64,000 bases of DNA, from NCBI GenBank assembly GCA_964291285.2, contig OZ219787.1:160001-224000 (forward strand). Direction: 5' to 3'. The notes beneath the pieces are model-generated. The model did no database searches. It was not told the DNA's origin and saw only the letters and a program-made list of their open reading frames with translations. A program made the position numbers and the translations under genes. This DNA is from Alphaproteobacteria bacterium. Lineage in GTDB: Bacteria > Pseudomonadota > Alphaproteobacteria > Bin95. This document shows, one piece after another, positions 9,888-46,362 of this stretch; position 1 is the first letter of the stretch, and every line of letters begins with the position of its first letter.

Positions 9888-10214
9888 TAGGGATCGGCCA
9901 GGCCCGGCGCCAACTAGCAGTGCCCGTCCGACCGCAACGCCAAAGGATGCCAAAGCCGCCCGCTCCTTGTCTTCCTCGGCGGTCAGATTTTTGAACAATA
10001 CGTCATCGTTCCAGACAAATTCGACCCTTTCCCCCAAGAGGCTTCGAGGCGAAACCCCTAGTCGCCTAGCGAGGACGAACCGTAACTCAGTACGCGCTGA
10101 GGGAGAGTCAGCTAATTCCTTCGACCACCAGTCAGGCCATGCCGCTTTGATAGTCTGCCGGCTAATCCCTGCTTGAGATAATGCACTGACTAGAGATTTC
10201 GTTTCTTTGTCCAG
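9888..10214 (-). pseudogene. Truncated low-GC gene resembling the N-terminus of an ImmA/IrrE-associated protein
   Basis: RBS GGAGGAG + CTG; ...IKAAWPDWWSKELADSPSARTELRFVLARRLG...; cut by the IS5 end. Confidence 0.45.
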
Positions 10215-12969: not shown

Positions 12970-14577
12970 TCAAATCCGCCCGTCATAAGCCCGCCGGCCG
13001 ATCCCGGCGGCGATGATCGTGAAGCGGTCGCGGGCGAGCGCCGCCTCCAGTTCCCGCGCCAGCGCGGCGCGGTCGCGGACGGCTACGCCCTCGCCGCCGA
13101 GCGCCCTTGCGACGGCGGGGAAGTCGGTGGCGCCGAAGTCCACGGCGAGGTTCGGGAGCTGGGAGGTGCGCTGCTTCAGCTCGATCAGGCCGAGTTGCGC
13201 GTCCACGAAGACGAGGATGGGGATGGCGAGGCCGAGGTCGCGGAGCGTGGCGAGCTCGCCGAGGAACATCTCCAGGCCGCCGTCGCCGATGGTCGCCACC
13301 ACCGCGCGGTCCGGCTCCGCCAGCTTGCGCCCGATGGCGAGCGGCACCGCGCAGCCCATGGTGCAGAGGCCGGTGGACTGGAGCAGGCCGCGCGGGCGGT
13401 AGCATTCGAACAGCTGGCTCAGCACGATCCGGTGCGCGCCGCTGTCGGTGGTCACCACGGCGTCGCGCGGCAGCGACCGGCGCAGCACATCGACCACCGC
13501 CGCCGGGCCCCACTCCTCGTCGAGCCGGCTTTCCGCGCGGAGCGCCGCCCTGGCCGCCGCCGGCTCGCCCTCCGGCCAGGTGCCGCGCGGCTCCACGCCC
13601 CGGCCGAGCGCCTCCAGGCCGGCGGCGACATTGCCGGGGAAGGCGAGCCGGGCCCGGTGCATGCCGTGGCCGCCGGCAACGGCCGGCAGGTCGATCACGC
13701 GCGCGCCGTCCGGCCACGGGTCGCGCCAGCCGATGCGCATCTCTATCGGGTCGTAGCCGGCGAGCACCACGCAGTCCGACGCCGCGGCCAGAGGCAGCAG
13801 GCGGCGGTCCGCGCGCGGGCTGAGGCCGGCGCCGCCGAGCGCCAGCGGGCCGTCCTCCGGCAGCACGCCCTTCGCCTTGTAGCTGGTGACGAGCGGCGCG
13901 CCGAACCGCCGGCAGAAATCCGCGACGGCCGCCTCCGCCCGCTGGTTCAGCACGTCGAGGCCGGCGATCACGAGCGGGCGGCGGGCTTGCCGGAGCCACG
14001 ACCGGGCCTCCTCCAGCGCCGGGCCTTCCGCCGGGCCGACCGGGGCGGGCGCTGGCTCCGGGGCGGGCGGCGGCGCGGCCTGCTCGCGGGTCTGCACGTC
14101 GATGGGGATGTCCAGCAGCACCGGGCCGGGCCGGCCTTCCGTGGCGATGGCGACCGCCCGGTCGGCGAGCAGGGCGGCCATGCCGTTCTCGACCCGGAAG
14201 GCGGCCTTGGCGACCGGCTCCACCAGCTTCACATGGTCGAGCACCTGGTGGGTGTAGGCGTGGCGCTCGTCGGTGGAGACGCAGCCGGTCAGCACCACCA
14301 TCGGCATGCGGTCCTGCCAGGCGTTGGCGATGGTGTTGACCGCGTTGGCGAGGCCGGGGCCGATGGTGGCGACCAGGATCGCCGGCGCGCCGTCATGGTG
14401 GTGGACGCCCTCGCCCATGAAGCCCGCGCAGGTCTCGTGCCGGGCGAGCACCACGCGGATGCCGGCCCGGTCGAGCGCGTCCATGACCGCCAGCACCTCG
14501 CCGCCCGGAATGCCGAACGCGTGCCGGCAGCCGGCCGCCGCCAGCCGCCGCGCAATCAGGTCCGCCGAATGGGGCAT
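12970..14577 (-). CDS. Thiamine pyrophosphate-binding protein (acetolactate synthase-like)
   Basis: FGIPGG, RHE, IGPG, TMGCAVP, GDGG motifs; start at MPHSADLIA. Confidence 0.9.
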   Translation of the reverse strand: MPHSADLIARRLAAAGCRHAFGIPGGEVLAVMDALDRAGIRVVLARHETCAGFMGEGVHHHDGAPAILVATIGPGLANAVNTIANAWQDRMPMVVLTGCVSTDERHAYTHQVLDHVKLVEPVAKAAFRVENGMAALLADRAVAIATEGRPGPVLLDIPIDVQTREQAAPPPAPEPAPAPVGPAEGPALEEARSWLRQARRPLVIAGLDVLNQRAEAAVADFCRRFGAPLVTSYKAKGVLPEDGPLALGGAGLSPRADRRLLPLAAASDCVVLAGYDPIEMRIGWRDPWPDGARVIDLPAVAGGHGMHRARLAFPGNVAAGLEALGRGVEPRGTWPEGEPAAARAALRAESRLDEEWGPAAVVDVLRRSLPRDAVVTTDSGAHRIVLSQLFECYRPRGLLQSTGLCTMGCAVPLAIGRKLAEPDRAVVATIGDGGLEMFLGELATLRDLGLAIPILVFVDAQLGLIELKQRTSQLPNLAVDFGATDFPAVARALGGEGVAVRDRAALARELEAALARDRFTIIAAGIGRRAYDGRI

Positions 14578-14721: not shown

Positions 14722-15780
14722 ATGCAGGCGGTTCGGAAAGGGCGCGGGGCGGCGAGCAACCGGAGCGGGCGCTACGAGCGTGCGCAGGCGGAGGCGTTCG
14801 ACGACGGCTGGGGCACGGTGGAGGAGGAGCCGGCGCCGCTGCGCACGACCGTCACCGAGGAGGCGCCGCACAAGGTCATCACCCGCAACGACTCGCCGGA
14901 CCTCGGCTTCGACCGGTCGGTCAACCCCTACCGGGGCTGCGAACATGGCTGCATCTACTGCTATGCGCGGCCGACCCATGCCTGGCTCGGGCTCTCGCCG
15001 GGGCTCGATTTCGAGAGCCGGCTCTATGCCAAGCCGACCGCGCCGGCGCTGCTGGAGAAGGAACTGGCGCGGCCCGGCTACCGCTGCCGGGTGCTCGCCG
15101 TCGGCACCAACACCGACGCCTACCAGCCGATCGAGAAGCGCTACGCCGTCATGCGCGGCATCCTCGAAGTGCTGGCCCGCTGCCGCCACCCGGTCTCGAT
15201 CACCACCAAGTCCGCCCTCGTGCTGCGGGACCGGGGCCTGCTGGCGGAGATGGCGGCCGACAACCTCGCCCACGTCACCATGTCGGTCACCACGCTGGAC
15301 GGGCGGCTCGCGCGCAGCATGGAGCCGCGCGCCTCCGCGCCGGGGCGGCGGCTGGAGGCAGTGGCCGGGCTGCGCGAGGCGGGCGTGCCGGTCTCGGTCA
15401 ATTTCGCGCCCATTATCCCGGCGCTGAACGACCACGAGATGGAGGCGGTTCTGGAGGCGGCCGCCGCGGCCGGGGCGGGCGGCGCCGGCTACACGCTGCT
15501 GCGCCTGCCGATGGAGATCGCCGACCTGTTCCGCGAATGGCTGGAAGCGCATGCGCCGGACCGGGCGGCGCGGGTGCTCTCCCGCGTGCGCGACATGCGC
15601 GGCGGCCCGCTTTACAAGAGCGCCTTCCATGTGCGCATGAAGGGCGAGGGCGCCTATGCCGAGACGATCTCGAAGCGCTTCGCCATCGCCTGCCGCCGCC
15701 TCGGCCTCGAACGCGGCTACGGCAGGCTGGACGACACCCGCTTCCGCCCGCCCGGCGGACAATTGCAACTGGAGCTCTGA
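14722..15780 (+). CDS. PA0069-family radical SAM protein (SPL-like)
   Basis: NPYRGCEHGCIYCYARP, GTNTDAYQP. Confidence 0.92.
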   Translation: MQAVRKGRGAASNRSGRYERAQAEAFDDGWGTVEEEPAPLRTTVTEEAPHKVITRNDSPDLGFDRSVNPYRGCEHGCIYCYARPTHAWLGLSPGLDFESRLYAKPTAPALLEKELARPGYRCRVLAVGTNTDAYQPIEKRYAVMRGILEVLARCRHPVSITTKSALVLRDRGLLAEMAADNLAHVTMSVTTLDGRLARSMEPRASAPGRRLEAVAGLREAGVPVSVNFAPIIPALNDHEMEAVLEAAAAAGAGGAGYTLLRLPMEIADLFREWLEAHAPDRAARVLSRVRDMRGGPLYKSAFHVRMKGEGAYAETISKRFAIACRRLGLERGYGRLDDTRFRPPGGQLQLEL

Positions 15781-32768: not shown

Positions 32769-32905
32769 CCGGAACGCCGCCGGCCCCGGCGGTTGCACAA
32801 CGGCGGCGGCGAAGCCCCCGCGGCTGCGGCCTATGGATAGCCGGAGGACATATCTAGCGACGATGCCTTGCAGGAACTGCTAACGCTGAATTTAGCAAGC
32901 AACGG

Positions 32906-34870
32906 ATGATGCTTGGAGATCATGTGAACCACTTGAAACGAAGATTGATCGACAATCTCCCATATGCGCGCAAGGCGAAGTATGTGGATTGGCGTCTCCA
33001 ACGATCAACTCGCCGAGCACGTAGTTGGTTGACCGAATCCGCTCGGATCAACGTGCTTATCGATAATTCGACTCTCCGATTTGCAAGAACCCATGAAACA
33101 GTCAACATAAAACAACAATCGAACTGGCCGCCTGGCAGTGAACCTAGCGAAGTTTTTGTCTCCTATCGGGCACCAAAGGTTTACCTGCTTATTCTTGAGA
33201 GTCATCTTGTGAGATTGTAGGTTTGGAAGGGTTTCTGTTATCGGGAGGTCATGGATATGGCATTCAAGGTTGCATCGCGTGTTCGTGGCTTGAGCGACGA
33301 TGCGTTCCGAGCGTCGTTCGGCACGGAGGATCAGTGCCGGGCGGTGCTAGCCCGATTGCGCTGGCCGAACGGTTTCGAGTGCGGCTCCTGCGGGCATCGG
33401 GGGCACTGCATTCTTGCCGGGCGCAGGCTTTACCAGTGCAACCGCTGCAAGAAGCAGGTTTCGGTGACGTCGGGGACGATCTTCCACTCGACCAAGCTGC
33501 CCCTGACGTTGTGGTTTGCGGCGATCCACCTTGTGGTGACGGCGAAGAACGGCATTTCGTCGGTGGAACTCGGTCGCCGCCTCGGGGTCAGGCAGCCGAC
33601 CGCCTGGAGCATGAAGCAGAAGATCATGGCGGTGATGGCCCGGCGCGAAGCCGACACGCGGCTCGAAGGACGGGTCGAGATGGACGACGCCTGGCTCGGC
33701 GGGTCGCGCTCCGGCGGCAAGCGCGGCCGGGGCGCGCCGGGCAAGACGCCCTTCGTGGCGGCGGTCTCGACCAGCGCCGAAGGGGCTCCGCGCAAGGTCA
33801 AGCTCGTCCCGGTCAGGGGCTTCCGCAAGCGCGAGATCGCGCGCGGCGCCAAACGCTGGCTGGCCCCGGGGACGGAGGTCGTCACCGATGCCCTGCACTG
33901 CTGGAACGCCCTCGACGGCATCGCCGCAAGCCACAGCGCCATCCGTACCGGCTCAGGCCGCCGGGCAGCCCGCATGGCCCCCTTCAAATGGGTCAACACG
34001 ACCCTCGGCAACATCAAGAGCGCCATCGCCGGAACCTACCGAAAGCTCGGTCCCGACCATGCCGAACGCTACCTCGCCAGCTTCGCATGGCGATACAACC
34101 GACGATACCAACTCAACTCCATGATCCCACGCTTCCTTCACAGCGCCGTCAGAACACAACCCATCCCATATCAACTACTCATTGCAGGATGATCCTTGAG
34201 AATAAGCAGGAAGGTTTATGAAGAACGACACAAAGACATAAACGAGAACATGCCATACCTTCCAGGTATTGCGCACCTGGCGCGCACAGGAATGTTAAGG
34301 TTGATGACGTCTAGGGAATTAAAAAGCGAACAATACCATCATCCTATCGGCACAGCGCAGGGACATATGGGATGGTTCTATTATTGGCTTTTTGACGGAA
34401 TTGATATAGAATCTGTAGATGGATATGAGGTCTCCAATTTTGATCTCGAATATATTCGGAACAATCCAATTATCAATAAAGTCGTATACTCTACGGATAT
34501 AGATCCTTTCAATATGTATCCCGAAAATAAGGAAATTATGAATGAAAGGATCACACAATCTACTGATCCCATTTACCAAGAATTAGCGAAACTTCTTCCG
34601 AAGAAAAGTAATTTCTATGCATGGCATATTAGAACCGCAGAAGCGCATGGTCTATTCTGCTTCCTGACAATGGACTTCAAACTCCGTGGCGCGATTGAGA
34701 AAAATAAAAACAAAGAGCCGATTGCCTCATTACGTACCAAAGTGATGACCCCGGCTGAATTTGGAAAGCATATCGGATTATCGCCGATTGATCCTTACAT
34801 CTGTGAGTTGGCAGAACAGGACGCCATGAAATCGAGTGCCAGGCTGCGGGAACTTCGTTTGCTCATGTGA
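32906..34870 (+). pseudogene. Low-GC PIN-like protein interrupted by IS1595
   Basis: Rejoins as ...APKVY|EERHK...; VLIDNS, WHIRTAE, FLTMDFKL. Confidence 0.65.
33184..34210 (+). mobile_element. IS1595-family element (1027 bp); transposase 33251-34192
   Basis: IRs CCTGCTTATTCT / AGAATAAGCAGG; 8-bp TSD AAGGTTTA; Zn ribbon, VEMDD, VVTD, WRYNRR. Confidence 0.93.
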
Positions 34871-34906
34871 AATCGGGACAGCGAACTCACATACCGGTCG
34901 CGCCAC

Positions 34907-35188
34907 TCATGCGAAAAGCAGGGCGCGCTTGACAGCTTTGGGTTCCCGCTGAATCACGCGCAGAAGCGTCGCGGCCGGACCGCTGACGCGCCGCGTTCCC
35001 TGCTCCCACTTGCGGTAGCCGGAAAGGCTCATGCCCATCAGGGGCGCCATCTGAGCCTGCGTGAGTTTCGCCTGCTTGCGGACCTCACGCGGGGCCACGG
35101 GCGCATGAACGGTCGCCGGGCCTTCGCCCCTGGCATGGGCCAGCGCCTCGCCAAGGGATTGGATCAGATCGTTCCCGAAAGTGCTCAT
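34907..35188 (-). CDS. HigA-like HTH antitoxin
   Basis: DLIQSLGEALAHARG, LTQAQMA, RKWEQG. Confidence 0.85.
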   Translation of the reverse strand: MSTFGNDLIQSLGEALAHARGEGPATVHAPVAPREVRKQAKLTQAQMAPLMGMSLSGYRKWEQGTRRVSGPAATLLRVIQREPKAVKRALLFA

Positions 35189-35310
35189 CGCGTCTCCTTT
35201 GCGGCGCTCTCGGTCGCCTCGACGATCATGGCGACCGAGCGTCGGCCCGCCCTGCTCAAATCGGTCTTTGCGGACTCGGCATAGGCGAGGAGCGCATAGC
35301 CCAAAGGGGC
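35185..35310 (-). pseudogene. HigB/RelE toxin C-terminal remnant
   Basis: YALLAYAESAKTDLS...; overlaps the antitoxin start; N-terminus absent. Confidence 0.55.
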
Positions 35311-35442
35311 ATCGGAGGCAATTCCAGGAGGCCGCATCGGCGCCGGAGGACGGGAGCGGATCGCAGCCCTGCGCGCTTGGTCCCGGCAGTCGCAGTGTTT
35401 ACCTTGAGTCTGCTTTGTCCGCGCTGTCCTGGAGGAACCGCG

Positions 35443-35712
35443 ATGCCCGAACCGTTTACCGCCATTGTGTCCGCGAGAGGCCGGGTTACGTTGCCGGGTG
35501 CGGTCCGCCGGGCGCGGCGCTGGGCTCCGGGAACGCGGTTAGTCGTCGAAAACACGCCGGAGGGCGTGTTGTTGAAGCCCGCGCCGGTTTTCGCCGAGAC
35601 CCGGCCGGAGGATGTGTTCGGAAGCGTCGCATGGGACGGCCCGCCCAGATCGCTGGAGGACATGGAAGCCGGCGTCCTTGAGGAGGCCAAGCGGCGCTAC
35701 GAACGCGCTTGA
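35443..35712 (+). CDS. AbrB/MazE/SpoVT antitoxin
   Basis: VSARGRVTLP...WAPGTRL...GVLLKP. Confidence 0.85.
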   Translation: MPEPFTAIVSARGRVTLPGAVRRARRWAPGTRLVVENTPEGVLLKPAPVFAETRPEDVFGSVAWDGPPRSLEDMEAGVLEEAKRRYERA

Positions 35713-35755
35713 TACGAATGCAGCCGTCCGGTGCCTCGCTTGCGACGACCCGGCC
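35699..35755 (+). pseudogene. VapC toxin N-terminal remnant
   Basis: (ACG)NALDTNAAVRCLACDDP resembles VapC DTNxxVRxLxxDDP; start codon mutated, remainder missing. Confidence 0.55.
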
Positions 35756-35952
35756 TGCCCCGCTGCCGCTCTGCTGGCGCTTCGCCGCCGACCGGCCCGT
35801 TATGGCGCAGGATGTAGTTTTCGACGAAGGTGAGCTTGCCCTTCACCTCCGTTAGCCCCTGTTCCATGGCCCGCAACGCGCGTTGGCGCAGCCCGTTCGC
35901 GGTGGCGCGAAATCGGATAGACAGTCTTGTTCTATATTTTTGTAAAAATTCC

Positions 35953-36185
35953 TTGACAAACATCGACCAAAGGAACATCTTGCCTATCTAGGCTGGGAGG
36001 AAGCGGCATCCGGAGGCCGCAGCCGTTCGCGCCGGCGCGAAAAAAACGCCTGGGAAGGCGGCGGGACAGGTGCGTCCCGCGCCCAAGCCTTCGCCTTCGC
36101 GCGGGCGCGGGCGGGCGCAATCAGGCGCGCGAACCGCGCCGGCGCCGACGCGCGCGGGCGCCCGCGCGGGATACGCGCGAATTAG
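35953..36185 (+). repeat. Dispersed promoter-led GC-rich repeat, copy A
   Basis: TTGACA 35953; motif GGAAGCGGCATCCGGAGGCCGC 35999-36020; core 36117-36185. Confidence 0.75.
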
Positions 36186-37395
36186 CCCGACTTCCGCAAC
36201 TCGGCTTGAGAATCGACTGATTTGACGGTTTTCCGGCGCGAGAAGTGTCGGATTTCGGTGCAGTACCTCTCGGGACCGGCTTGTAGTGCCGACCTACCCC
36301 CTTGATCGGGCTGGCGAAGATCCGGACGCTGCGCTGATGTTCGTGCGCTGCAAGAGACGCTTCAAGGACGGCAAGGAGCACCGCTACTGGAGCGTTGTGG
36401 AGAACGTCCGGGTCCACGGCGGTCGGGTTGTTCAGCGTCAGGTGCTCTATCTCGGGGAGATCAACGACAGCCAGCGAGCGGCGTGGTGCCGCTCGATCGA
36501 GGTGGTGGAGGGCAAGTCGCGATCACGGCAGATGGCGCTGTTTCCCGAGGACCGGGAGGCGCCGGCGCTGACTTGCGAAGTGGTGAAGATCGACCTCTCG
36601 CAGGTGGCGCTTCACGACCCGCGCCAGTGGGGGGCGTGCTGGCTGGCGCTGTCCTTGTGGGACCGCCTGGACCTGGACCGCTTCTGGGAAGAGCGGCTGC
36701 CGGCGAGCCGGCAAGGCACGCGGTGGCTGGACATCCTGAAGATCCAGGTCTGCTACCGGCTGATCGACCCGGGCAGCGAGTGGCGCCTTCACCGTCACTG
36801 GTATGAGCACAGCGCGCTTCGCGATCTTCTGGGTGGCGAGCGGGCGATCGCCGACGACACACTCTATCGCTGTCTCGACAAGCTGCTGGCGCACAAGCAG
36901 GGCTTCTTCTCGTTTCTGCGCGACCGCTGGGCGACGCTGTTCGAGGCGCGCTTCGACGTGCTGCTCTACGACCTGACCTCGACCTACTTCGAGAGCGATC
37001 CGCCGTTCGATGACAAGCGCCGCTTCGGCTACAGCCGGGACAAGCGGCCCGACTGCGTGCAGGTGGTGATCGCCCTGATCGTTACGCCGCAGGGCTTTCC
37101 GCTGGCCTATGAGGTGATGCCGGGCAACACCTCCGACGACACCACGCTGGCGGCGTTCCTCAAGAAGATCGAGGATCAGTATGGCCGCTCCGAGCGGGTG
37201 TGGATCATGGACCGCGGCATCCCCACCGAGGAGACGCTGGCCGCGATGCGCGAGGGCGAGGCGCCGGTGCGCTACCTGGTGGGCACGCCCAAGGGCCGGC
37301 TGACGCGGCTCGAGAAGGTGTTCCTGGGCCTGCCCTGGCAGGAGGTGCGCCAGTCCGTGACTGTCAAGCTTCTGGTCGAGGATGGCGAGCTCTAC

Positions 37396-39409
37396 CCCGA
37401 CTTCCGCAACTCGGCTTGAGAATCGACTGATTTGACGGTTTTCCGGCGCGAGAAGTGTCGGATTTCGGTGCAGTACCTCTCGGGACCGGCTTGTAGTGCC
37501 GACCTACCCCCTTGATCGGGCTGGCGAAGATCCGGACGCTGCGCTGATGTTCGTGCGCTGCAAGAGACGCTTCAAGGACGGCAAGGAGCACCGCTACTGG
37601 AGCGTTGTGGAGAACGTCCGGGTCCACGGCGGTCGGGTTGTTCAGCGTCAGGTGCTCTATCTCGGGGAGATCAACGACAGCCAGCGAGCGGCGTGGTGCC
37701 GCTCGATCGAGGTGGTGGAGGGCAAGTCGCGATCACGGCAGATGGCGCTGTTTCCCGAGGACCGGGAGGCGCCGGCGCTGACTTGCGAAGTGGTGAAGAT
37801 CGACCTCTCGCAGGTGGCGCTTCACGACCCGCGCCAGTGGGGGGCGTGCTGGCTGGCGCTGTCCTTGTGGGACCGCCTGGACCTGGACCGCTTCTGGGAA
37901 GAGCGGCTGCCGGCGAGCCGGCAAGGCACGCGGTGGCTGGACATCCTGAAGATCCAGGTCTGCTACCGGCTGATCGACCCGGGCAGCGAGTGGCGCCTTC
38001 ACCGTCACTGGTATGAGCACAGCGCGCTTCGCGATCTTCTGGGTGGCGAGCGGGCGATCGCCGACGACACACTCTATCGCTGTCTCGACAAGCTGCTGGC
38101 GCACAAGCAGGGCTTCTTCTCGTTTCTGCGCGACCGCTGGGCGACGCTGTTCGAGGCGCGCTTCGACGTGCTGCTCTACGACCTGACCTCGACCTACTTC
38201 GAGAGCGATCCGCCGTTCGATGACAAGCGCCGCTTCGGCTACAGCCGGGACAAGCGGCCCGACTGCGTGCAGGTGGTGATCGCCCTGATCGTTACGCCGC
38301 AGGGCTTTCCGCTGGCCTATGAGGTGATGCCGGGCAACACCTCCGACGACACCACGCTGGCGGCGTTCCTCAAGAAGATCGAGGATCAGTATGGCCGCTC
38401 CGAGCGGGTGTGGATCATGGACCGCGGCATCCCCACCGAGGAGACGCTGGCCGCGATGCGCGAGGGCGAGGCGCCGGTGCGCTACCTGGTGGGCACGCCC
38501 AAGGGCCGGCTGACGCGGCTCGAGAAGGTGTTCCTGGGCCTGCCCTGGCAGGAGGTGCGCCAGTCCGTGACTGTCAAGCTTCTGGTCGAGGATGGCGAGC
38601 TCTACGTCCTGGTGCGCAGCGAGGGGCGGCAGGTGAAGGAACGCGGCATGCGCCGGCGCCGGCTGAAGAGGCTGTGGCGTCGATTGGCCGAGTTGCAAGG
38701 GCAGTCGAACAGCCGGGATCAGTTGTTGCTCAAGCTCGGCGCCGCCAGGAAGGAGGCCGGCCGGGCCTGGAGCCTGGTCGACATCACCGTGCCCGGGACC
38801 GACAGCGAACTCGCCGCCAACGGCTTCTCATTCCGCCTGCAGCGCGACCGGCTGCGCCAGGTCCGCCGCCGCGAGGGCCGTTACCTGCTGCGATCCAACA
38901 TGGTCGCCGAAGACCCCGCCACGCTGTGGCATCTGTACATGCAGCTCGTCGAGATCGAGCAGGCGTTCAAGGAACTCAAGCACGACCTCGCGATCCGCCC
39001 CATCTTCCATCAGCGCCAAGAGCGCATCGAGGCGCATATCTTCGTCTCGTTCATCGCCTACTGCCTGCTGGTGACCCTGAAGAACCTCGCCCGGCCGCGC
39101 GCCCCGGGCCTCACCCCACGCGCCATCCTTGAGGCCTTCGCCACCATCCAGATGGTGGACGTCCATCTGCCAACCACCGACGGCCGGCACCTCGTCCTGC
39201 CGCGCCACACCCGGCCGAACAAGGAGCACGAGCTACTGCTGCAACAGCTCGGCATGACCTGGCCGCAGCAACCCGCACCCCGGATCTCCGCCTGACGGCA
39301 CACGGCGCCGCCTCTCCGTTCGCCGCCTTGTAGTGCCGACCCTCGGGGAGACGATCAAGGCTATTCAATGAGTTAGCATCCTCATGACCCCCGAGTTGCG
39401 GAAGTCGAG
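37396..39409 (+). mobile_element. Nested intact IS1634 (transposase 37496-39295)
   Basis: 2014 bp; TSD CTAC; right end GTCGAG variant. Confidence 0.92.
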
Positions 39410-39529
39410 CTACGTCCTGGTGCGCAGCGAGGGGCGGCAGGTGAAGGAACGCGGCATGCGCCGGCGCCGGCTGAAGAGGCTGTGGCGTCGATTGGCCGAG
39501 TTGCAAGGGCAGTCGAACAGCCGGGATCA

Positions 39530-40696
39530 TACCAGCGGTTGAGGGTTGAGACTCATTGAGGGGATTCCCAAGGTTATCGAGTTCTGACTCAATAGCGATT
39601 CTGCGATTGGAGGGTCGTTATGAGGGCAGCAATCCCCTTGAGGGAGGATTTTGATGCGGCGCAGTTGCGCGGCTTGGCGCAGCGGAGCCGGGATGGTTCG
39701 CAGAACCGTCGCCTTCTTGCGCTTGCGGTGATTTACGACGGTTACCGTCGTTCGGATGCGGCGCGTTTTGCGGGGGTGGGCTTGCAGATCATCCGGGACT
39801 GGGTTCTTCGCTTCAACGCGGAAGGCCCGGAGGGATTGAAGGATCGCAAGGCCTCAGGTCCGCCGCGCAAGTTGAACGGGGAGCAGCGCGCGGCGCTGGC
39901 GGCGGTTGTGGAGAGCGGTCCGGACCCGGCGATCCACGGCGTGGTGCGGTGGCGGCGCTGCGACCTGGCGGCATGGCTCAGCGAGCAGTTCGGCATCTCG
40001 TTGGCGGAGACGACGGTCGGGCGGGAGTTGCGCCGGATGGGCTACGCCAGGCTCTCTGCGCGCCCGCGCCACTATGCCCAGGACGAAGCCGCGCTGGCAG
40101 GGTTCAAAAAAACTTCCCCGACCGCCTGAAGGAGATCCGCGCTGCACTCGGCGACGGCGTCGAGGTCGAAGTCTGGTGGCAGGACGAGGCGCGCGTCGGG
40201 CAGAAGAACAAGATCACCCGGCGATGGGCGAAACGCGGCACCCGACCGTCAGCGCCCAAGGACCAGAGAACCATCTCGGCCTACATCTTCGGCGCCATAT
40301 GCCCGCAGAAGGGCAAGGCCGCCGGCCTCGTCATGCCCCACGCCAACACGGAGGCACTCAACGCCCACCTCGCCGAGGTCGCCCTCACCGTTGAACCCGG
40401 AGCCCATGCCCTCGTCATGCTCGACCGGGCCGGATGGCACACATCCCCGGCCCTCAAAGTCCCCGACAACATAACCCTGATGCCGCTCCCGCCCCGGTCC
40501 CCCGAACTCAATCCCGTCGAGAATGTCTGGCAGTTCATGCGCGAAAATTGGCTCTCGAACCGCGTCTTCCAGAACTACGACGACATACTCGATCACTGCT
40601 GCCAGGCCTGGAACAATCTCGTCTCACAACCAGAACGCATCGCCTCCATCGGAACCCGAAAATGGGCCAATGGGTTCTGAACTATGCCCGCTGGTA
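39530..40696 (+). mobile_element. IS630-family element (1167 bp), frameshifted transposase 39620-40680
   Basis: IRs TACCAGCGG / CCGCTGGTA; QDEARVG, LDRAGWH, SPELNPVENVW; A7C slippery site near 40106; TCA duplicated. Confidence 0.92.
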
Positions 40697-41387
40697 TCAG
40701 TTGTTGCTCAAGCTCGGCGCCGCCAGGAAGGAGGCCGGCCGGGCCTGGAGCCTGGTCGACATCACCGTGCCCGGGACCGACAGCGAACTCGCCGCCAACG
40801 GCTTCTCATTCCGCCTGCAGCGCGACCGGCTGCGCCAGGTCCGCCGCCGCGAGGGCCGTTACCTGCTGCGATCCAACATGGTCGCCGAAGACCCCGCCAC
40901 GCTGTGGCATCTGTACATGCAGCTCGTCGAGATCGAGCAGGCGTTCAAGGAACTCAAGCACGACCTCGCGATCCGCCCCATCTTCCATCAGCGCCAAGAG
41001 CGCATCGAGGCGCATATCTTCGTCTCGTTCATCGCCTACTGCCTGCTGGTGACCCTGAAGAACCTCGCCCGGCCGCGCGCCCCGGGCCTCACCCCACGCG
41101 CCATCCTTGAGGCCTTCGCCACCATCCAGATGGTGGACGTCCATCTGCCAACCACCGACGGCCGGCACCTCGTCCTGCCGCGCCACACCCGGCCGAACAA
41201 GGAGCACGAGCTACTGCTGCAACAGCTCGGCATGACCTGGCCGCAGCAACCCGCACCCCGGATCTCCGCCTGACGGCACACGGCGCCGCCTCTCCGTTCG
41301 CCGCCTTGTAGTGCCGACCCTCGGGGAGACGATCAAGGCTATTCAATGAGTTAGCATCCTCATGACCCCCGAGTTGCGGAAGTCGGG

Positions 41388-41771: not shown

Positions 41772-42308
41772 TCACCCCGCCCTCGCGGGGACAGGCAGGG
41801 CGCGGGGCGCGAAACCGCCGTCCGCTTCGCACGCGCCCTCCAGCGCCAGCAGGAACCGTTTCCCCTCCGCCCCGCCCGGGCCGGACCAGCCGCCGAGCGC
41901 ACCATTGACCGCGACGATCCGGTGGCAGGGCACGATAATCGGCAGCGGGTTGCGACGGCAGGCACCGCCGACCGCGCGCGGGCTGGAACCCACAGTCCGG
42001 GCGACATCGCCATAGCTCCGGGTCCCGCCCGGCGGGATATCCCGCATGGCCTGCCAGACCGCGCCATCGTGCGCCGTCCCGTGCGGCGAGAGGGGCAGGT
42101 CGAACGACCGCCGTCCACCCGCGAAATAGGCTGCAAGCTGGACGGCCGCTTCATCCAGCAACGGCGATGCGTCCTCCCGCCCGGCGCGGCCCCAATGGAG
42201 GCCCGTCAACGCATCTCCCGACGCAACCAGCGTCACCCGCCCCAACGGCGTCTCGACGGTTCGTCCTATGTTGAAGCGGCTGTCAGCCAGAGATTCGTCC
42301 GCAGACAT
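41772..42308 (-). CDS. ogt: Methylated-DNA--protein-cysteine methyltransferase
   Basis: SYGDVA, RAVGGAC, PCHRIV. Confidence 0.92.
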   Translation of the reverse strand: MSADESLADSRFNIGRTVETPLGRVTLVASGDALTGLHWGRAGREDASPLLDEAAVQLAAYFAGGRRSFDLPLSPHGTAHDGAVWQAMRDIPPGGTRSYGDVARTVGSSPRAVGGACRRNPLPIIVPCHRIVAVNGALGGWSGPGGAEGKRFLLALEGACEADGGFAPRALPVPARAG

Positions 42309-42346
42309 GATTCATTTTTCGGAAACTCCTTTGGCGAAGAACAAAT

Positions 42347-43084
42347 TTAACGAGAGAGAATTGTGAACAAAAACAGGTGGCATGGGTGAAGGACCCACCT
42401 GATTTCGTTGTCTCTATTGTCCCATTCTATCGGAATTATTTTTGATTGCCCATCGCTTTGGTACCACAATACAGCGTCCGGAGATCGACGAAATTTCTCA
42501 ATGAAGTCTTCAATTTCAGCATCCCCTATTTCCTCCTGATTCAAAAGCATATCCCTATTTCTCCCATTCTGATATGGTGTTATTATCTGCAGCCCGATAC
42601 AGCAAGTATTTTGCTCATTTCTCAGAGCAGGCCCATTTCTCACTTGATTGACTTGTTCTACAAGATTCTCCCATGGTCGGCGCACCCTATCTGGAACCCT
42701 CCTATTGAACAAATTATTCACACCAACATACGAACGTTTGAATTCGAAGTAATATTCGATGTCATCTTTGTATGCCCAAAGATCGACCCTACCATTTCTG
42801 TCTCTTGCCCGGTCTCTGTTTCTCGGATTCCGCCTGTCTCTCCTCTTAATTACTTTACTCTCAGATTGATGGACCGGTGTAAGTTTATGCATAGCCGCAG
42901 CCATAAGAGAATAAAGTTCTCTCTCCCTATAGAGAAGGTTATGGTGCGGATATTCCCAGTTTCCAATACAAGCCGCGTAATGCCTTCTATTACAATTTTT
43001 GATGTTCCGAACAAATTGTTCGATGAACGGGTTTATCGCGCCTTCATTATGGCCAGCATATGATTCTGCTATCGTTACAGGCAT
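42347..43084 (-). CDS. Low-GC putative PD-(D/E)XK nuclease-fold protein
   Basis: RBS GGAGG + ATG; ERELYS ... GRVDLWAY ... YFEFKR. Confidence 0.6.
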   Translation of the reverse strand: MPVTIAESYAGHNEGAINPFIEQFVRNIKNCNRRHYAACIGNWEYPHHNLLYRERELYSLMAAAMHKLTPVHQSESKVIKRRDRRNPRNRDRARDRNGRVDLWAYKDDIEYYFEFKRSYVGVNNLFNRRVPDRVRRPWENLVEQVNQVRNGPALRNEQNTCCIGLQIITPYQNGRNRDMLLNQEEIGDAEIEDFIEKFRRSPDAVLWYQSDGQSKIIPIEWDNRDNEIRWVLHPCHLFLFTILSR

Positions 43085-43182
43085 CGATTCCTCCCCATGC
43101 CTCATCAAGATGCTTGCCGTACCCGAAAGGACGTCTCGCGCATGGAATGATCCAAGAGCGATTACAACCGAACTGTCTACAA

Positions 43183-44166
43183 CTATATCCTCTTGCCGTG
43201 CCAAGCTGCAAGCTCCTCGCACATCGCCGCCAGCCTGCGCCGCAGCTTTGCCGGTTGCTCCACGGTAACGCTGTCGCCCCAGGTGATGAGGTGCCAGCAC
43301 ATTTCGTCGAGGCCGCCAGCGTTGAAGCGGATCGTTACCGTGCCGTCCTCGTTCTCCTCGACGGTCTGGTCCGGGTGGAAGAGGAAGGTTGCGGCGTCGG
43401 GGGCGGCGCGGGCGTCGAAGCGGAGGACCACCTTGACCGGCTCCTCCTGGAACGTGCCGAAGGAGCGCCGGGTGAAGGCCCGCAGGTCGAAGGCGCGGTC
43501 GCGCTCGAAATCGTCGAGGCCGAGCTTCGCCCCGCTTATGTTGGCGAGGCGCCAGAGGCGCGGTTCGCCGCTCCAGTCGGTGCGCGCCACGAGGAAGGAG
43601 CGGTTGCCGTAGAGCAGGCCGTAGGGCTCCACGGTCTGGCGGCTTTGCAGCCCCGTCTGCCGCGACAGGTAGTCGAATTCGACCGTGCGGCGGGCGAGGA
43701 TGGCGCCGCGCAGCAGCGAGAGCAGCGCCGGCTCGATCGGCTGCCTCGGGCCCGGCCGCATGGCGAGGCCCTCGGCGCGGAGCAATGCTTCGAGTTCCTC
43801 CTCCAATTCACCGGCGAGGCGGGCGGCGCGGAGCTTTTCGGCGACCGTCTCCAGCGGGGCGGCGTATTGGCCGAGGCCGGCCTGTTCGAGCGCCGACGCG
43901 GCAGCGGAAAGCGCCGCCAATTCCTCCGTCGAGACGGAGATGAGCCTGCGAAACGCATCCGAGCGCAGCCGCCAGTGCTTCCTGCTGTCGTCGTTCTCCA
44001 CTTCCTCCAGCGGCTCGAACGCCCACTCGACGGCGGCCCGCATCCGCTCGGCCGTCCTGCGGCTGACCTTGAAGCGGGACTGGATGTCGTCGAGCGTCAG
44101 GCCGGTATGCGAGCCCTGAAGGGCAATCGCCAGACGGACAATATGCTTCAGGCGTTCGTAACGCAT
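43183..44166 (-). CDS. driD: WYL-domain transcription factor, DriD-like (327 aa)
   Basis: wHTH GLTLDDI...SRRTAERMR; WYL region FLVA...WRL; WCX FHPDQ...WHLITWGD; resembles Caulobacter DriD as recalled. Confidence 0.8.
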   Translation of the reverse strand: MRYERLKHIVRLAIALQGSHTGLTLDDIQSRFKVSRRTAERMRAAVEWAFEPLEEVENDDSRKHWRLRSDAFRRLISVSTEELAALSAAASALEQAGLGQYAAPLETVAEKLRAARLAGELEEELEALLRAEGLAMRPGPRQPIEPALLSLLRGAILARRTVEFDYLSRQTGLQSRQTVEPYGLLYGNRSFLVARTDWSGEPRLWRLANISGAKLGLDDFERDRAFDLRAFTRRSFGTFQEEPVKVVLRFDARAAPDAATFLFHPDQTVEENEDGTVTIRFNAGGLDEMCWHLITWGDSVTVEQPAKLRRRLAAMCEELAAWHGKRI

Positions 44167-44231
44167 GCCGCCCCTCCCATGCCGGTCCCCGCCGGGAGCA
44201 CCATAGGCGGCGCTCCCGGCAGGACCAAGGC

Positions 44232-46298
44232 TCACGCCCGGAAGCCCACAACCTGCGGGCGGCCCGGCTTGGCGTCGCATTCCTGCCGCAGCATCCCGGC
44301 CAGCGCGGCGGGGTCGTCCAGCAGCCCGACGATCTCCGCCTTGCGCCGCACCACGGCGAAATCGCCGGGGGTAAGCGCCGCGAGACCGCGGAGGCAGGTC
44401 GGCGGCTCCTTCCCGAAGTAAGCGCGGAAGGCGGCTTCCGCCTGTTCGGGCGCCAGATAGTCCAGCGCCACCTTGAAGGTGAAGCGCCGGAGCGTCGCCG
44501 GGTCCAGACGGTCGCCGAAATTGGTGGTGCAGGCGAAGGGCAGCGGGTGGCTCTCCATCCAGGTCAGCATCTCGTTGACCTGGCTCACCTCCCACGACCT
44601 CTGGGCGAAGCGGCGGTCGGCAAGCAGCGAGTCGGCCTCGTCGAACACGAGGAACGCGCCGGCGTCGCGCGCCTCGGCGAAGGCATCCGCGATCTGTTGC
44701 TCCGTCTCGCCGACCCACTTCGACAAGAGGTCGGAGGTCCGCTTCTGCATCACTTCCAGGCCCAGCCGTTCGGCAAGGAACCGGACGTAAGCGCTCTTGC
44801 CCGTGCCCGGCGGGCCCTGCAGGCAGAGGGAGAAGCGCCGCGCGCCGGAACCGACAATGCGCCCGGCCAGCGCGGCCGGGTCCGTGTCGGCCCGGATGAG
44901 CGCGGGGTCGAAGCGCGCCGGCGTTCCCTCGGGCGGCTTCCCGCAGCCGAGGACCCGCGAGAGGCTGCGCACCCCGCGGCGCACGGCTTCGAGCTCGCCG
45001 CCCGCCAGCGCGGCCGCGGCCGTCGCGCCCGCCGCAATCCCGGGCGTGGCCTCGAACCCGGCGGCCAGCGCGCGCACCTCCTCCGGCTTCGCCTCGATGC
45101 CGTGGCGCTCAAGCTGCCGCGCCCAGACCCGCTGCCTTACCGGGGCGGTCGGCGGGCGCAGCTCGAAGGCGAACATCATGCGCCGGAGGATGGCCGGACT
45201 GACATGCCGGGCGTCGTTCATCGTCCAGAGCGTCGGCGCGGGGGCGCGCTCCAGCAGCCGGTGCATGAAAATCCTGGAGGAGCCGCCCCGGGCGTTGCGG
45301 GCGAACCGGCCTCCCAGGAAATCGAATTCCGGCCCGTCGTCCTCAAGCAGGTCCTCCATCTCGTCGAACAGCAGCAGCGAGCGCCGGTCCTGCGCCAGCA
45401 GCCGCTGGGCGAGGCGCAGCTCCTGCATCCGTTCCCGGCGCGACGGCTCGCGCCCGTCCCCGTCCGCTTCGCCGACGCTGTAGAGCGCAACGCCGAGGCA
45501 TTCGGCCACCGTCTTGCAGAACTCGGTCTTTCCGGTTCCCGGAGGTCCGTAGAGCAGGATGTTGACGCCCGGCTCCCGGCGTTCCAGCGCGCCCTTCAGC
45601 AGCCTCTCGACATGGTCGCGGCCCTCGGCCACATGGTCGAAATCGGACCAGTCGAGTTCGCTCGCGCCCGCGGCGTCGAAGAGCAGGCCGTTCGCATCGA
45701 GCCCGGCTCCGGCGGGAGCGAGCGCGAGCCGGTTGAGACGGTCGATAGCCTTCACTTCGCCGTCGCTGTCGATGGAAACGAGCCCGCACCGGATGAGCGG
45801 CGCGCCGTCTGCGAGGCGGCGTGCGACCGTATTTGTCGAGAGGCCCAGGGGCAGGGCCAGCGCGCGTCCCCCGATGTTCAGGTCGTGCCATCGGGAGGGG
45901 TCGACGAAGACGTCATCGATCATCGATTCGAAGACGGGATTCGTCCGGTCGCGCACCAGAAGTTCGAGAAGCGCGGTGTCGGTGCGGGAGAGCCCCGTCG
46001 TTTGCGCCAGACGCAGGAGGCGCCGTCCGGTCCGGTCGCGCCTCGGCGCCCTGGCCGCGCACTCGTCCTGCAAGGCCTGCCGCAAGCCGCGAAACTGTTC
46101 TTTCGAGACCTTGTCGTAGTCGGCGGTCCAGCGGCGCATGCGCCGTCGCCGCCTCCCTCGTCGTCCGAGCGCGACGCGGTTCTCTCCGTCGGCCACCCAC
46201 CCGGCGAGCGCCGAGGCTTCGGGGTCCCGTCGGCGCAGGCCCGAGGCGGCGTTAGCGAGGTACCGGGTGAGCAGATGTCGTTCGTAGGCGGTCAGCAT
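44232..46298 (-). CDS. Tandem-domain AAA+ ATPase
   Basis: Two Walker A (GPPGTGKT, GPPGTGKS) and two Walker B (LFDE, VFDE) motifs; RRF arginine finger. Confidence 0.92.
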   Translation of the reverse strand: MLTAYERHLLTRYLANAASGLRRRDPEASALAGWVADGENRVALGRRGRRRRRMRRWTADYDKVSKEQFRGLRQALQDECAARAPRRDRTGRRLLRLAQTTGLSRTDTALLELLVRDRTNPVFESMIDDVFVDPSRWHDLNIGGRALALPLGLSTNTVARRLADGAPLIRCGLVSIDSDGEVKAIDRLNRLALAPAGAGLDANGLLFDAAGASELDWSDFDHVAEGRDHVERLLKGALERREPGVNILLYGPPGTGKTEFCKTVAECLGVALYSVGEADGDGREPSRRERMQELRLAQRLLAQDRRSLLLFDEMEDLLEDDGPEFDFLGGRFARNARGGSSRIFMHRLLERAPAPTLWTMNDARHVSPAILRRMMFAFELRPPTAPVRQRVWARQLERHGIEAKPEEVRALAAGFEATPGIAAGATAAAALAGGELEAVRRGVRSLSRVLGCGKPPEGTPARFDPALIRADTDPAALAGRIVGSGARRFSLCLQGPPGTGKSAYVRFLAERLGLEVMQKRTSDLLSKWVGETEQQIADAFAEARDAGAFLVFDEADSLLADRRFAQRSWEVSQVNEMLTWMESHPLPFACTTNFGDRLDPATLRRFTFKVALDYLAPEQAEAAFRAYFGKEPPTCLRGLAALTPGDFAVVRRKAEIVGLLDDPAALAGMLRQECDAKPGRPQVVGFRA

Positions 46299-46341
46299 GG
46301 ACTCTCTCCGGATTGCGGTATCCGGGGAGCATGACGGCCGA

Positions 46342-46362
46342 ATGCGTCAGATCCGGTCGTAT
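46342..46362. promoter_or_regulatory. DriD-binding box
   Basis: ATGCGTC-N7-GTCGTAT versus the DriD site ATACGAC-N7-GTCGTAT; 44 nt upstream of the AAA start, with a CATGCT -10-like hexamer between. Confidence 0.7.

Follow-up and report, generated by a model that had tools for sequence, protein, structure and literature searches.

A DriD-type promoter, a tandem AAA+ ATPase gene and driD recur together, with a variable gene position behind them

The WYL-domain regulator DriD of Caulobacter crescentus, the Moraxellaceae regulator DdaA and the BrxR/CapW regulators are the described systems closest to the locus analysed here, a set of genes read on the minus strand from position 46381 downwards in a 64,000-nt stretch of alphaproteobacterial DNA (contig OZ219787.1, positions 160,001 to 224,000; the window, below). 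These genes encode a tandem AAA+ ATPase (AAA), a DriD orthologue, a 245-aa protein that we call the cargo protein, and Ogt. An earlier examination of the letters and translations alone (the sequence-only reading) had described three co-oriented genes followed by ogt, and all four indeed lie on the minus strand (Table 1). Caulobacter DriD has so far been described as a chromosomal activator of the damage response (PMC9186387, PMC13004042), and its regulon includes didA, bapE, recJ, dnaG and CCNA_03891/01149, bapE being an endonuclease (PMC13004042). In its target promoters the site and the -35 position overlap, and the spacing to the -10 is constant (PMC13004042); at the Caulobacter driD locus a box 10 nt before driD drives a divergent operon. 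DdaA, a DriD-related WYL activator, turns on repair genes together with defence systems such as Zorya, restriction-modification and CRISPR-Cas, all preceded by its motif CGWCA-N5-TGWCG (PMC12392091), and so connects the sensing of damage with phage defence.

With Caulobacter the locus of the window shares the orthologous regulator, of the same length and with the same DNA-reading residues, and the same class of box, CGNC-N7-GNCG, placed over the -35 at a fixed distance from the -10 (PMC9186387, PMC10853764, PMC13004042). The arrangement is distinct: whereas the Caulobacter box drives a divergent operon at a locus without an AAA+ gene, in the window driD lies within the box-driven operon, behind the AAA+ gene, and is followed by a slot for cargo. 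The right half-site of the window's box, TGACG, resembles the DdaA motif; however, DdaA is a chromosomal master regulator without a linked AAA+ gene or cargo slot. In the BrxR and CapW systems, as at the window's locus, a WYL sensor lies beside its target genes, and the signal is single-stranded DNA (ssDNA; PMC11662680), but BrxR and CapW are repressors of a different clade (PMC12392091), whereas the regulator under study is a DriD-clade activator inside the operon. The words "AAA" and "ATPase" have no occurrence in the DdaA papers PMC12392091 and PMC13010146 or in PMC9186387, and "ATPase" and "operon" have none in PMC10853764, in which DriD homologues are searched for by blastn only. Full-text literature searches, in a collection lacking most subscription journals, returned no published pairing of DriD or of a WYL protein with this ATPase.

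We consider it probable, though well short of certain, that the locus is a copy of a widespread two-gene module, made of a DriD-box promoter, a Cdc48-like tandem AAA+ ATPase and DriD, which carries an exchangeable cargo position and is triggered by ssDNA and activated through DriD. Sequence comparison establishes the gene order, the orthology, the conservation of the promoter, the pairing of the ATPase with DriD and the turnover of the cargo.

Regulator, promoter and ATPase

The regulator matches the Pfam models WYL (3.9e-12) and WCX (5.9e-17) and aligns over residues 1-324 to the C. crescentus DriD chains 9pfq and 8tp8 (E 1.2e-52). The residues reported to contact the operator through bases and phosphates are Arg36, Arg37, Thr38, Arg41 and Arg43 (PMC10853764), and R36, R37, T38, R41 and R43 of the window's protein are identical to those of Caulobacter DriD, as is the whole recognition helix, RRTAERMR. 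The full-length match and the five identical DNA-reading residues bear out the proposal that the WYL protein is a DriD orthologue. Across 26 AAA-linked DriDs no change is seen at R36, R41 or R43, and conservation at R37 and T38 is at least 90%, which fits the conservation of the box described below. Regarding the ssDNA-contact residues given in PMC9186387 (Tyr168, Ser172, Arg178, Tyr192, Lys202, Arg204 and Trp206), alignment to Caulobacter DriD indicates that Y168, R178, R204 and W206 are kept and the other three replaced.

On the plus strand the box at 46342-46362 reads ATGCGTCAGATCCGGTCGTAT and has two mismatches against ATACGAC-N7-GTCGTAT. It is the sole match in the window at two or fewer mismatches, where 0.07 would be expected, and 7 of 100 shuffles yield one. 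Taken alone these within-window statistics are weak; it is the comparative data that make a strong and decisive case for the box. Relatives of the ATPase were collected with 18 aligned homologues from a collection holding one genome per species, in which at least 594 stretches encode one; the best 80 of these stretches were kept as 79 related loci (L numbers). For the box survey, which covered the 54 of 79 loci having a tblastn match that starts at residue 3 or earlier and at least 60 nt of upstream sequence, the expression CGNC-N7-GNCG was sought in the 130 nt preceding the ATPase start. It is found upstream of the ATPase gene in 44 of these 54 loci; 39 of the 44 have a distance of 41-51 nt from box end to start codon. 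In every one of those 39 a hexamer of the form xAnnnT stands exactly 8 nt past the box, its first base being T in 35 and C in 4. A position weight matrix (PWM) built from the 39 boxes has the consensus aTaCGaCCGaATcTGaCGyAt, with C4, G5, C7, G15, C17 and G18 invariant, and its scan of the 64-kb window returns a single match, 46342-46362, at 33.9 bits. Among the ten loci negative for the expression, the matrix matches upstream of the ATPase gene in L016 (degenerate, at the usual distance) and in L021 and L039 (farther from the gene). Several loci in which no DriD-like gene adjoins the ATPase gene, for example L019, L067, L073 and L074, nonetheless have the box before it. Directly before driD no PWM match was found in the window or in the related loci, the matches to the expression there being GC-rich coding sequence of the AAA 3' end or of the spacer.

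The CATGCT hexamer lies 8 nt past the box on the minus strand, as had been implied beforehand, and transcription is predicted to start near 46321. A box that overlaps the -35 and keeps a fixed distance to the -10 is also the geometry of the Caulobacter didA, CCNA_03891 and bapE promoters, as printed in PMC13004042. There the didA oligo (methods) consists of box, GGCTCGGC and CAAGGT; the CCNA_03891 oligo, once reverse-complemented, of box, TGCGCGGA and CAATCT, in agreement with the FP oligo; and the bapE oligo of box, 8 nt and CAAGCC, while in the "optimised -35" variant TTGACA occupies box positions 7-12, separated from the hexamer by 17 nt. Read letter by letter in this way, these hexamers would be the -10 elements of the three promoters. 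Compared with the didA site given in PMC9186387, the window's box agrees at 16 of 20 positions. Thus a DriD-type promoter before the AAA gene, already suspected from the letters, is upheld by an arrangement of box and hexamer conserved in 39 loci, and because driD lies behind this box-driven promoter, DriD very probably drives its own operon, as had also been proposed.

The ATPase matches Pfam PF00004 (E 3e-32) in two stretches, with P-loop matches at residues 245-277 and 490-613, and can be divided into a helical N-terminal region (about 1-225), D1 (about 226-400) and D2 (about 490-613). Invariant across 18 homologues are both Walker A motifs (GPPGTGKT, 251-258; GPPGTGKS, 495-502), both Walker B pairs (DE, 312-313 and 553-554), the paired arginines RR 372-373 and RR 604-605 (arginine fingers) and the D2 pore loop W528-V529-G530. 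With its AlphaFold2 model (predicted local distance difference test, pLDDT, 74; predicted template modelling score, pTM, 0.51) as query, a Foldseek search of the PDB gives NVL, p97, Cdc48, Rix7 and AFG2 as top matches, at E 3e-17 to 2e-15 over about 530-575 columns that include both modules; the TM-scores are low, 0.30-0.36, and sequence identity is 17-20%. The likeness to Cdc48, p97, NVL and Rix7 thus consists of two AAA modules with Walker A and B motifs, a W-V-G pore loop in D2 and fold matches at E of about 1e-17, and the differences, beyond the low identity, lie in the helical N-terminal region. Residues 1-225 are predicted helical and give a weak match to the variant winged-helix model PF22977 (E 6e-4), and a Cdc48-type N-domain is lacking, neither CDC48_N nor CDC48_2 being found with Pfam. 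These features suggest that the protein acts as a type II AAA+ unfoldase or remodeller.

In the defence libraries its best match is the anti-phage ATPase IetA/IteA (E 5e-24 with PADLOC, 1e-23 with NCBIfam). Membership in IetAS/IteA was rejected: the score of 83.9 bits falls far short of the NCBIfam cut-off of 510, the alignment is confined to the D2 AAA core (profile positions 124-259 of 374), and the operon has no IetS-like protease gene. McrBC-like pairs combine an AAA+ motor with a PD-(D/E)XK nuclease. The locus resembles them in that an AAA+ protein with a putative nucleic-acid-binding N-terminal region is encoded beside a PD-(D/E)XK-type gene, the two genes overlapping on a Croceicoccus plasmid; this likeness is one of genes alone, and the ATPase of the window is a tandem AAA protein of the classical clade, not a McrB GTPase.

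The ATPase-DriD pair and the position behind driD

A co-oriented DriD homologue less than 900 nt from the ATPase stop was detected with tblastn in 41 of 76 assessable loci (three contigs end too soon), and two divergent WYL+WCX genes occupy the same position in L033 and L061 (Pfam), which brings the total of AAA with WYL to 43 of 76. Elsewhere the two genes are parted by a 2.9-kb insert (L013) or by a TnpB-like gene (L037), or driD is divergent (L072). The pair occurs in metagenome-assembled genomes (MAGs) labelled Alpha- and Gammaproteobacteria, Nitrospirales, Binatia and Acidobacteriota, and in Latescibacterota loci the WYL gene that accompanies the ATPase is more distant and lies a few kb upstream. 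Three copies (L001, L002 and L006) are present in a single MAG, and plasmids of cultured Rhodobacterales carry the pair as well, namely pRsa of Fuscovulum blasticum and a conjugative plasmid of Leisingera thetidis. Neighbours of the related loci include AbiEi, HipA, ParE/Phd, reverse transcriptase and HEPN genes, and also polA, dnaB, holA and DinG-like and AddA-like genes.

The position behind driD was surveyed in the 40 AAA-DriD loci with enough sequence, counting a co-oriented open reading frame (ORF) of at least 70 aa that starts no more than 300 nt after the driD stop. Such an ORF is present in 27 of the 40, and its GC content is lower than that of AAA-driD by at least 0.10 in 14 of the 27 (15 when L041 is included). 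Pfam was run on 105 downstream ORFs and PADLOC on 52; many of the slot ORFs have no match in either, while those that have one are assigned as in Table 1. L013 contains a UDG-superfamily gene. All-against-all BLASTP places the slot proteins in several unrelated families, and an NCBIfam scan of 24 cargo proteins of relatives gave nothing useful. This neighbourhood analysis confirms a variable effector slot downstream of AAA-driD, with an ORF in 27 of 40 loci, unrelated families, often low GC and often a nuclease (HNH, PD-(D/E)XK, GIY-YIG, DEDDh). The trio of the sequence-only reading, in contrast, is not what is conserved: the core is the AAA-DriD pair, 13 of 40 AAA-DriD loci lack a co-oriented gene within 300 nt downstream, and the cargo family of the window was found by tblastn in only 1 of the 79 loci.

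Close relatives evidence how the slot changes. The window and L003, L004, L005 and L007 have the upstream synteny ProV-AAA-DriD in common, with HNH_2 in the slot of L003 and L004, a weak match to PLD in that of L005 and the window's own family in that of L007. By blastn, DNA identity between the window and its relatives is 80-85% and breaks off at 43196-43218, shortly ahead of the end of driD (stop at 43183); homology to L006 and L041 resumes at about 42270, inside ogt, and among the relatives compared L007 alone is colinear with the window throughout. Behind the slot, ogt is also present in L006, L007 and L041. In L006 orphan copies of the driD 3' end (13995-14104 and 15017-15313) follow each of two cassettes, one for an uncharacterised 270-aa protein and one for an HNH_2 protein, as expected if cassettes arrive with a piece of driD; by comparison with the orphan modules of polymorphic toxin loci, they look like the footprint of successive cassette acquisitions. 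In five loci (L079, L081, L082, L004 and L022) cargo genes are preceded by a canonical DriD box of their own (Table 1).

Several rearranged or distant loci were also observed. Five loci of Latescibacterota MAGs (L040, L047, L059, L064 and L071) contain a variant box, CTGCGACGCGATCTGTCGCAC, up to five times per 20-kb locus, around the AAA copies and the distant WYL gene (28-29% identical), which suggests a local multi-promoter regulon. In L013 the box, the leader and the first AAA codons are duplicated 2.5 kb apart (7414-7520 and 9929-10010), the stretch between not being one open frame. The DriD match of L005 (12142-13131) contains a stop codon and is a decayed copy, and in L041 (1-1186) an internal deletion joins the 5' part of AAA to the driD 3' end with the low-GC cassette and ogt retained. 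For the glycohydrolase gene of L081 the start codon seems to have been annotated about 130 nt too far downstream, a TTG lying 43 nt past the box. On a Croceicoccus marinus plasmid (L080, 4302-7063) the gene of a distant AAA homologue (37% identical) overlaps by 4 nt an annotated PD-(D/E)XK nuclease gene, without a WYL gene, among HEPN, ParDE, SbcCD and IS66 genes. Distant ATPase homologues followed directly by a nuclease gene, likewise without a WYL gene, occur in L040 (REase-ARP) and L068 (PDDEXK_4) as well as in L080, and the overlapping pair of L080 suggests that the link of ATPase and nuclease is older or wider than that with DriD.

The low-GC gene, transcript hairpins and surroundings

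The cargo gene has a ribosome-binding site of its own, with ggggaggaatcgATG before the ORF 42347-43084. As had been noticed, it is AT-rich: GC content is 0.42-0.45 across about 42300-43200 against 0.68-0.74 over AAA, driD and ogt on either side. In both the window and L007 the gene has a GC content of 0.42-0.43. Against L007 the ratio of nonsynonymous to synonymous substitution rates (dN/dS) is 0.20 for the cargo gene, 0.25 for AAA, 0.46 for driD and 0.24 for ogt, and the value of 0.20 indicates that the gene is maintained.

The cargo protein has no match in Pfam, NCBIfam, PADLOC or the PDB sequences (phmmer, E<=10), its tblastn search of plasmids and phages returned nothing, and hhalign against the PDDEXK_4 cargo proteins gives a probability of 0.1. 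A word-seeded search finds 32 homologues, none of them annotated, and a profile search of 1.84 billion cluster representatives finds 221 clusters at E<=1e-3; to judge from equal lengths of the longest contigs, three further close homologues, P0004, P0005 and P0006, seem to lie on the same contigs as the ATPase orthologues P0044, P0052 and P0036. Nineteen residues are invariant across 31 aligned sequences (T69, P70, Q73, S74, E75, D83, R85, G98, D101, L102, W103, E114, K116, R117, W138, L141, Q144, G164 and T169). The E...RVD...EFK motif read from the translation corresponds to E75, R99-V100-D101 and E114-F115-K116, and E75, D101, E114 and K116 are invariant in the 31 members, giving a catalytic-type pattern of D101 ... 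E114-x-K116 with the upstream acidic E75. The AlphaFold2 model (pLDDT 90.4, pTM 0.87) has the order H54-66, E76-81, E95-106, E109-121, H132-149 and E160-174, in which D101 sits on the second strand and E114/K116 on the third; this modelled alpha-beta-beta-beta-alpha-beta topology is the PD-(D/E)XK pattern.

Foldseek gives no match at E<=1e-3 in the PDB, where the weak matches include the AddA nuclease domain (probability 0.89), HincII, MGME1, Cas4 SSO0001, SduA, R2 endonuclease and SwaI, and none at E<=1e-3 in BFVD, where 12 of the top 20 are named PD-(D/E)XK, ExoV or ExoVIII. PD-(D/E)XK nucleases dominate these weak matches. An ESM Atlas search returns unnamed clusters only, the nearest named proteins being the restriction enzymes MunI and AccI at 0.76-0.78, which are leads only. 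Of 150 listed profile matches 122 were scanned with Pfam as distant relatives, short fragments and already-aligned members being left out, and none of the 122 reaches the Pfam cut-off. Below it, seven match PDDEXK_9, SduA_C, TnsA_N, UL24 or SfsA, which we take to be PD-(D/E)XK clan families, and seven others match unrelated families. Motif, topology and weak fold matches together make the cargo protein a putative PD-(D/E)XK nuclease. The suggestion of a horizontally acquired nuclease is thus upheld in part, since low GC and breakpoints at the driD stop make the gene look horizontally exchanged and motif and topology are nuclease-like, but it lacks a significant sequence or fold match; likewise, the AlphaFold-Foldseek comparison proposed for 42347-43084 yielded a confident model of PD-(D/E)XK-like topology but no significant Foldseek match.

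On the minus strand no consensus promoter or terminator was detected in the 98-nt spacer between driD and the cargo gene, and no terminator-like site between any genes of the locus; the three promoter-like sites all lie inside the AT-rich cargo ORF or ogt. Since no DriD box precedes the cargo gene, its transcription has to come from read-through or from a promoter that escaped recognition.

Two hairpins may act at the level of the transcript. In most leaders (L001-L075) a pyrimidine run just past the -10 is complementary to the Shine-Dalgarno sequence (46302-46327 in the window), and the arm and the Shine-Dalgarno change together, as CTCTCC/GGAGAG, CCCTCC/GGAGGG, CCCCCA/TGGGGG and CCTCGC/GCGAGG. 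At least five bases of the Shine-Dalgarno region are paired in the minimum-free-energy fold of 32 of 40 related leaders. A formal covariation count is suggestive only, with 19 cells changed on both sides against 11.4±2.5 in shuffles and slid registers scoring similarly. Because the 5' arm of the repeat covers about -6 to +2 relative to the predicted DriD-dependent start, the hairpin would form only in transcripts entering from upstream, here from proV, so that it may silence translation of unscheduled read-through mRNA, much as in the fold-back inhibition of IS10. In the window and its close relatives the spacer between AAA and driD folds at -30 to -52 kcal/mol; its hairpin is conserved in the close relatives L001 and L004-L007, and other strong hairpins are found in the same spacer of L010 and L015. 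The element may serve in attenuation, in RNA processing or in RNA stability.

Both Ogt domains are found by Pfam in the last gene of the locus (PF01035, DNA_binding_1, E 1.1e-26), NCBIfam gives TIGR00589 at 87.2 bits against a cut-off of 46.4, and the PCHR active-site motif is present as IVPCHRIV. Beyond ogt, 32900-41300 is dense in mobile elements (Table 1). A second DriD-like site there, 39733-39753 (TTACGACGGTTACCGTCGTTC), has three mismatches and a perfect CGAC-N7-GTCG core, and was taken as chance because it lies inside an IS630-type transposase ORF.

Table 1. Features of the locus and its surroundings, followed by annotated slot genes and cargo-associated boxes of related loci
Feature	Position in window, or locus	Strand	Basis or remark
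proV-like ABC ATPase	stop codon at 46381	-	Pfam ABC_tran; locus begins after that stop
DriD box ATACGACCGGATCTGACGCAT, CGAC-N7-GACG core	46342-46362	-	PWM, search at two or fewer mismatches, comparison
-35 position (box positions 7-12)	46351-46356	-	deduced from published promoter geometry
-10 hexamer CATGCT	46328-46333	-	8 nt past box; conserved in relatives
Leader inverted repeat CCGGAT-N6-ATCCGG	46308-46325	-	overlaps Shine-Dalgarno
Shine-Dalgarno GGAGAGAG of ATPase gene	46302-46309	-	leader sequence
Tandem AAA+ ATPase, 688 aa	44232-46298	-	Pfam, alignment, AlphaFold2/Foldseek
AAA-driD spacer, 65 nt	between 44232 and 44166	-	holds hairpin 44187-44223
GC-rich hairpin cctgccgggagcgcc-gcctat-ggtgctcccggcgggg	44187-44223	-	in AAA-driD spacer; no T-run after
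driD, 327 aa, wHTH-3HB-WYL-WCX	43183-44166	-	Pfam WYL and WCX; PDB DriD chains
driD-cargo spacer, 98 nt	43085-43182	-	about 90% identical to L007
Cargo gene, 245 aa, putative PD-(D/E)XK nuclease, GC 0.43	42347-43084	-	unannotated family; motif, AlphaFold2
ogt, 178 aa	41772-42308	-	Pfam, NCBIfam; 38 nt 3' of cargo gene
DDE_Tnp_1 transposase fragment	40434-41273		
IS630-type transposase, two overlapping ORFs	39620-40129, 39949-40680		
DDE_Tnp_1 transposase genes	36286-37419, 37496-39295		
HTH/MqsA-like gene	34907-35188		
Two low-GC ORFs	32906-33220, 34196-34870		without Pfam match
IS1595-type gene	33251-34192		
HNH_2	L003, L004; second gene of L006		slot cargo
Window's cargo family	L007		slot cargo
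PDDEXK_4 / PADLOC candidate PDC-S26	L055 directly; L022, L024 further on		slot cargo
GIY-YIG	L026; weak in L049		slot cargo
RNase_T / DEDDh / PDC-S48	L065		slot cargo
Weak PLD match	L005		slot cargo
DUF6642	L015		slot cargo
RNase_H_2 and SF1 helicase (MkoA-like)	L035		slot cargo
DUF2779	L075, L033		slot cargo
ADP-ribosylglycohydrolase with or without PTPase	L020, L079		slot cargo
MORN repeats	L039		slot cargo
DriD boxes of PTPase-ADP-ribosylglycohydrolase	L079 12848-12868, L081 6348-6368, L082 6274-6294		41-44 nt before TTG start; xAnnnT 8 nt past box
DriD box of NADAR gene (Pfam 4e-22)	L004 9237-9257		46 nt before gene, which is inserted upstream of ATPase promoter; correctly spaced -10
DriD box of 65-aa ORF overlapping Fic/Doc gene	L022 14104-14124		49 nt before ORF; correctly spaced -10

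Readings of the locus

The module would work as follows. ssDNA, arising from DNA damage or from an invading replicon, would bind the WYL domain of the DriD dimer, as orthology leads one to expect, and the complex would bind the box at 46342-46362 at the -35 and recruit RNA polymerase to the -10 hexamer, as the conserved geometry suggests. The transcript would encode the ATPase and DriD, giving positive feedback, and read-through would probably add the low-GC, PD-(D/E)XK-like cargo and Ogt. Both ATP sites of the ATPase are intact and its D2 pore loop is canonical; it would work as an unfoldase or remodeller, and the cargo would act on DNA. In this scheme we infer the activation by ssDNA, the co-transcription, the nuclease activity and the role of the ATPase. 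Positive autoregulation is implied by the placement of driD behind its own box, and would be a departure from Caulobacter.

Several observations weigh against this scheme. Three of the seven ssDNA-contact residues differ from Caulobacter DriD (Y192F, K202E and S172Q), and Caulobacter DriD does not activate its own gene (PMC13004042). The association is incomplete, given that 33 of 76 AAA loci have no adjoining WYL gene and 13 of 40 AAA-DriD loci no adjoining co-oriented cargo. PADLOC recognises no known defence system at the locus, and the matches to IetA are confined to the AAA core. Regarding the cargo gene of the window, the nuclease assignment stands without any significant match of sequence or structure in Pfam, NCBIfam, PADLOC, PDB, Foldseek PDB/BFVD or hhalign; the PWM scan places no DriD box before the gene, and with the 98-nt gap after driD and the ribosome-binding site of its own this means that its co-transcription is only assumed. 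Finally, the repair-like cargo and neighbours (ogt, UDG-like, NADAR, ADP-ribosylglycohydrolase, DEDDh exonuclease) fit a damage response equally.

One may ask whether there is a system here at all. The two mismatches of the box to the consensus, the 7 shuffles in 100 that produce such a match in 64 kb and the spurious three-mismatch match elsewhere in the window would be in keeping with a chance near-palindrome beside three genes that are mere neighbours. Such a coincidence is nevertheless extremely improbable and is refuted by the recurrence of box position and -10 spacing in 39 loci, since their AAA proteins are 52-86% identical to that of the window, a divergence that excludes recent copying among the loci. 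A more limited objection concerns the low-GC gene alone, which might have been inserted as a selfish or hitch-hiking element without functional tie to AAA-DriD, for instance a homing-type free-standing endonuclease or an orphan restriction enzyme, the driD 3' end being a recombination hotspot. HNH, GIY-YIG and PD-(D/E)XK are classical homing-endonuclease folds. All three are among the cargo types, the GC content of the gene is sharply foreign (0.43 against 0.70), its breakpoints fall right at the driD stop, L006 has orphan driD 3' fragments, the gene has no DriD box, and for few of the 221 clusters of its family is a genomic context established. However, cargo is co-oriented and near driD in 27 of 40 loci across phyla, and the gene of the window is under purifying selection and syntenic in L007. 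Moreover, five loci have cargo under a canonical DriD promoter of its own, and AAA homologues are directly followed by a nuclease without WYL on the Croceicoccus plasmid and in L040 and L068; these last two facts weaken the notion of a mere insertion, which we regard as quite unlikely.

A different matter is the purpose the operon serves. AAA, DriD and ogt might form a LexA-independent DNA-damage-response or repair operon. The ATPase would then free damaged DNA of proteins trapped on it, and the variable genes would encode lesion-specific repair enzymes (nucleases, glycosylase-like, ADP-ribose hydrolases). This proposal agrees with the known role of DriD in activating the damage response (PMC9186387, PMC13004042), with ogt behind the slot in the window, L006, L007 and L041, with NADAR and ADP-ribosylglycohydrolase among the boxed cargo, with the UDG-superfamily gene of L013 and the DEDDh exonuclease of L065, and with the neighbouring polA, dnaB, holA, DinG-like and AddA-like genes. 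It is less easily reconciled with three divergent copies in one genome, with carriage on conjugative or mobilizable plasmids or with low-GC cargo that differs between close relatives, none of which is expected of a master repair regulator; in addition, Fic/Doc, HEPN and the PADLOC candidate families are non-repair functions. A pure repair operon is, in our estimation, rather improbable. Between an inducible conflict or defence role and a pure repair role we rate the former slightly above the latter, because of the patchy, multi-copy, plasmid-borne distribution and the kind of cargo. The conflict interpretation draws on this distribution, on cargo turnover and low GC, on the cargo types, with matches to the PADLOC candidates PDC-S26 and PDC-S48 and to MkoA-like proteins, and on defence-type neighbours, and by analogy on the precedents of DdaA and bapE. 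The defence and repair readings are not mutually exclusive.

More speculatively, and with doubts that outweigh our confidence, AAA-DriD may be the core of an undescribed mobile, ssDNA-triggered immune or "damage-alarm" system present in many phyla. In it, a switch with positive feedback would be joined by a Cdc48-like unfoldase, as constant effector or licensing factor, and by a recombination-driven slot for DNA-attacking or toxin cargo (HNH, PD-(D/E)XK, GIY-YIG, DEDDh, PTPase-ADP-ribosylglycohydrolase, NADAR, Fic/Doc), with an anti-Shine-Dalgarno hairpin keeping read-through transcripts silent and restricting translation to mRNA begun at the DriD promoter.

The AAA-DriD locus falls among the inducible modules controlled by WYL sensors. 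What it adds is the same sensor put to a different use, DriD and a Cdc48-like ATPase forming one package behind DriD's own promoter that is spread across phyla and plasmids, and at least 594 relatives of the ATPase exist in the one-genome-per-species collection. If the defence or suicide-switch interpretation is true, an activator-driven positive-feedback design would be added to the WYL-controlled systems, with a bacterial role there for a type II AAA+ unfoldase; if the locus is a repair unit, an unstudied ATPase would take part in LexA-independent repair. Should the cargo of the window be a nuclease, its family, with 221 clusters and no Pfam model, would be a new nuclease family. Since promoter, regulator and signal are already understood in Caulobacter, these questions are directly testable.

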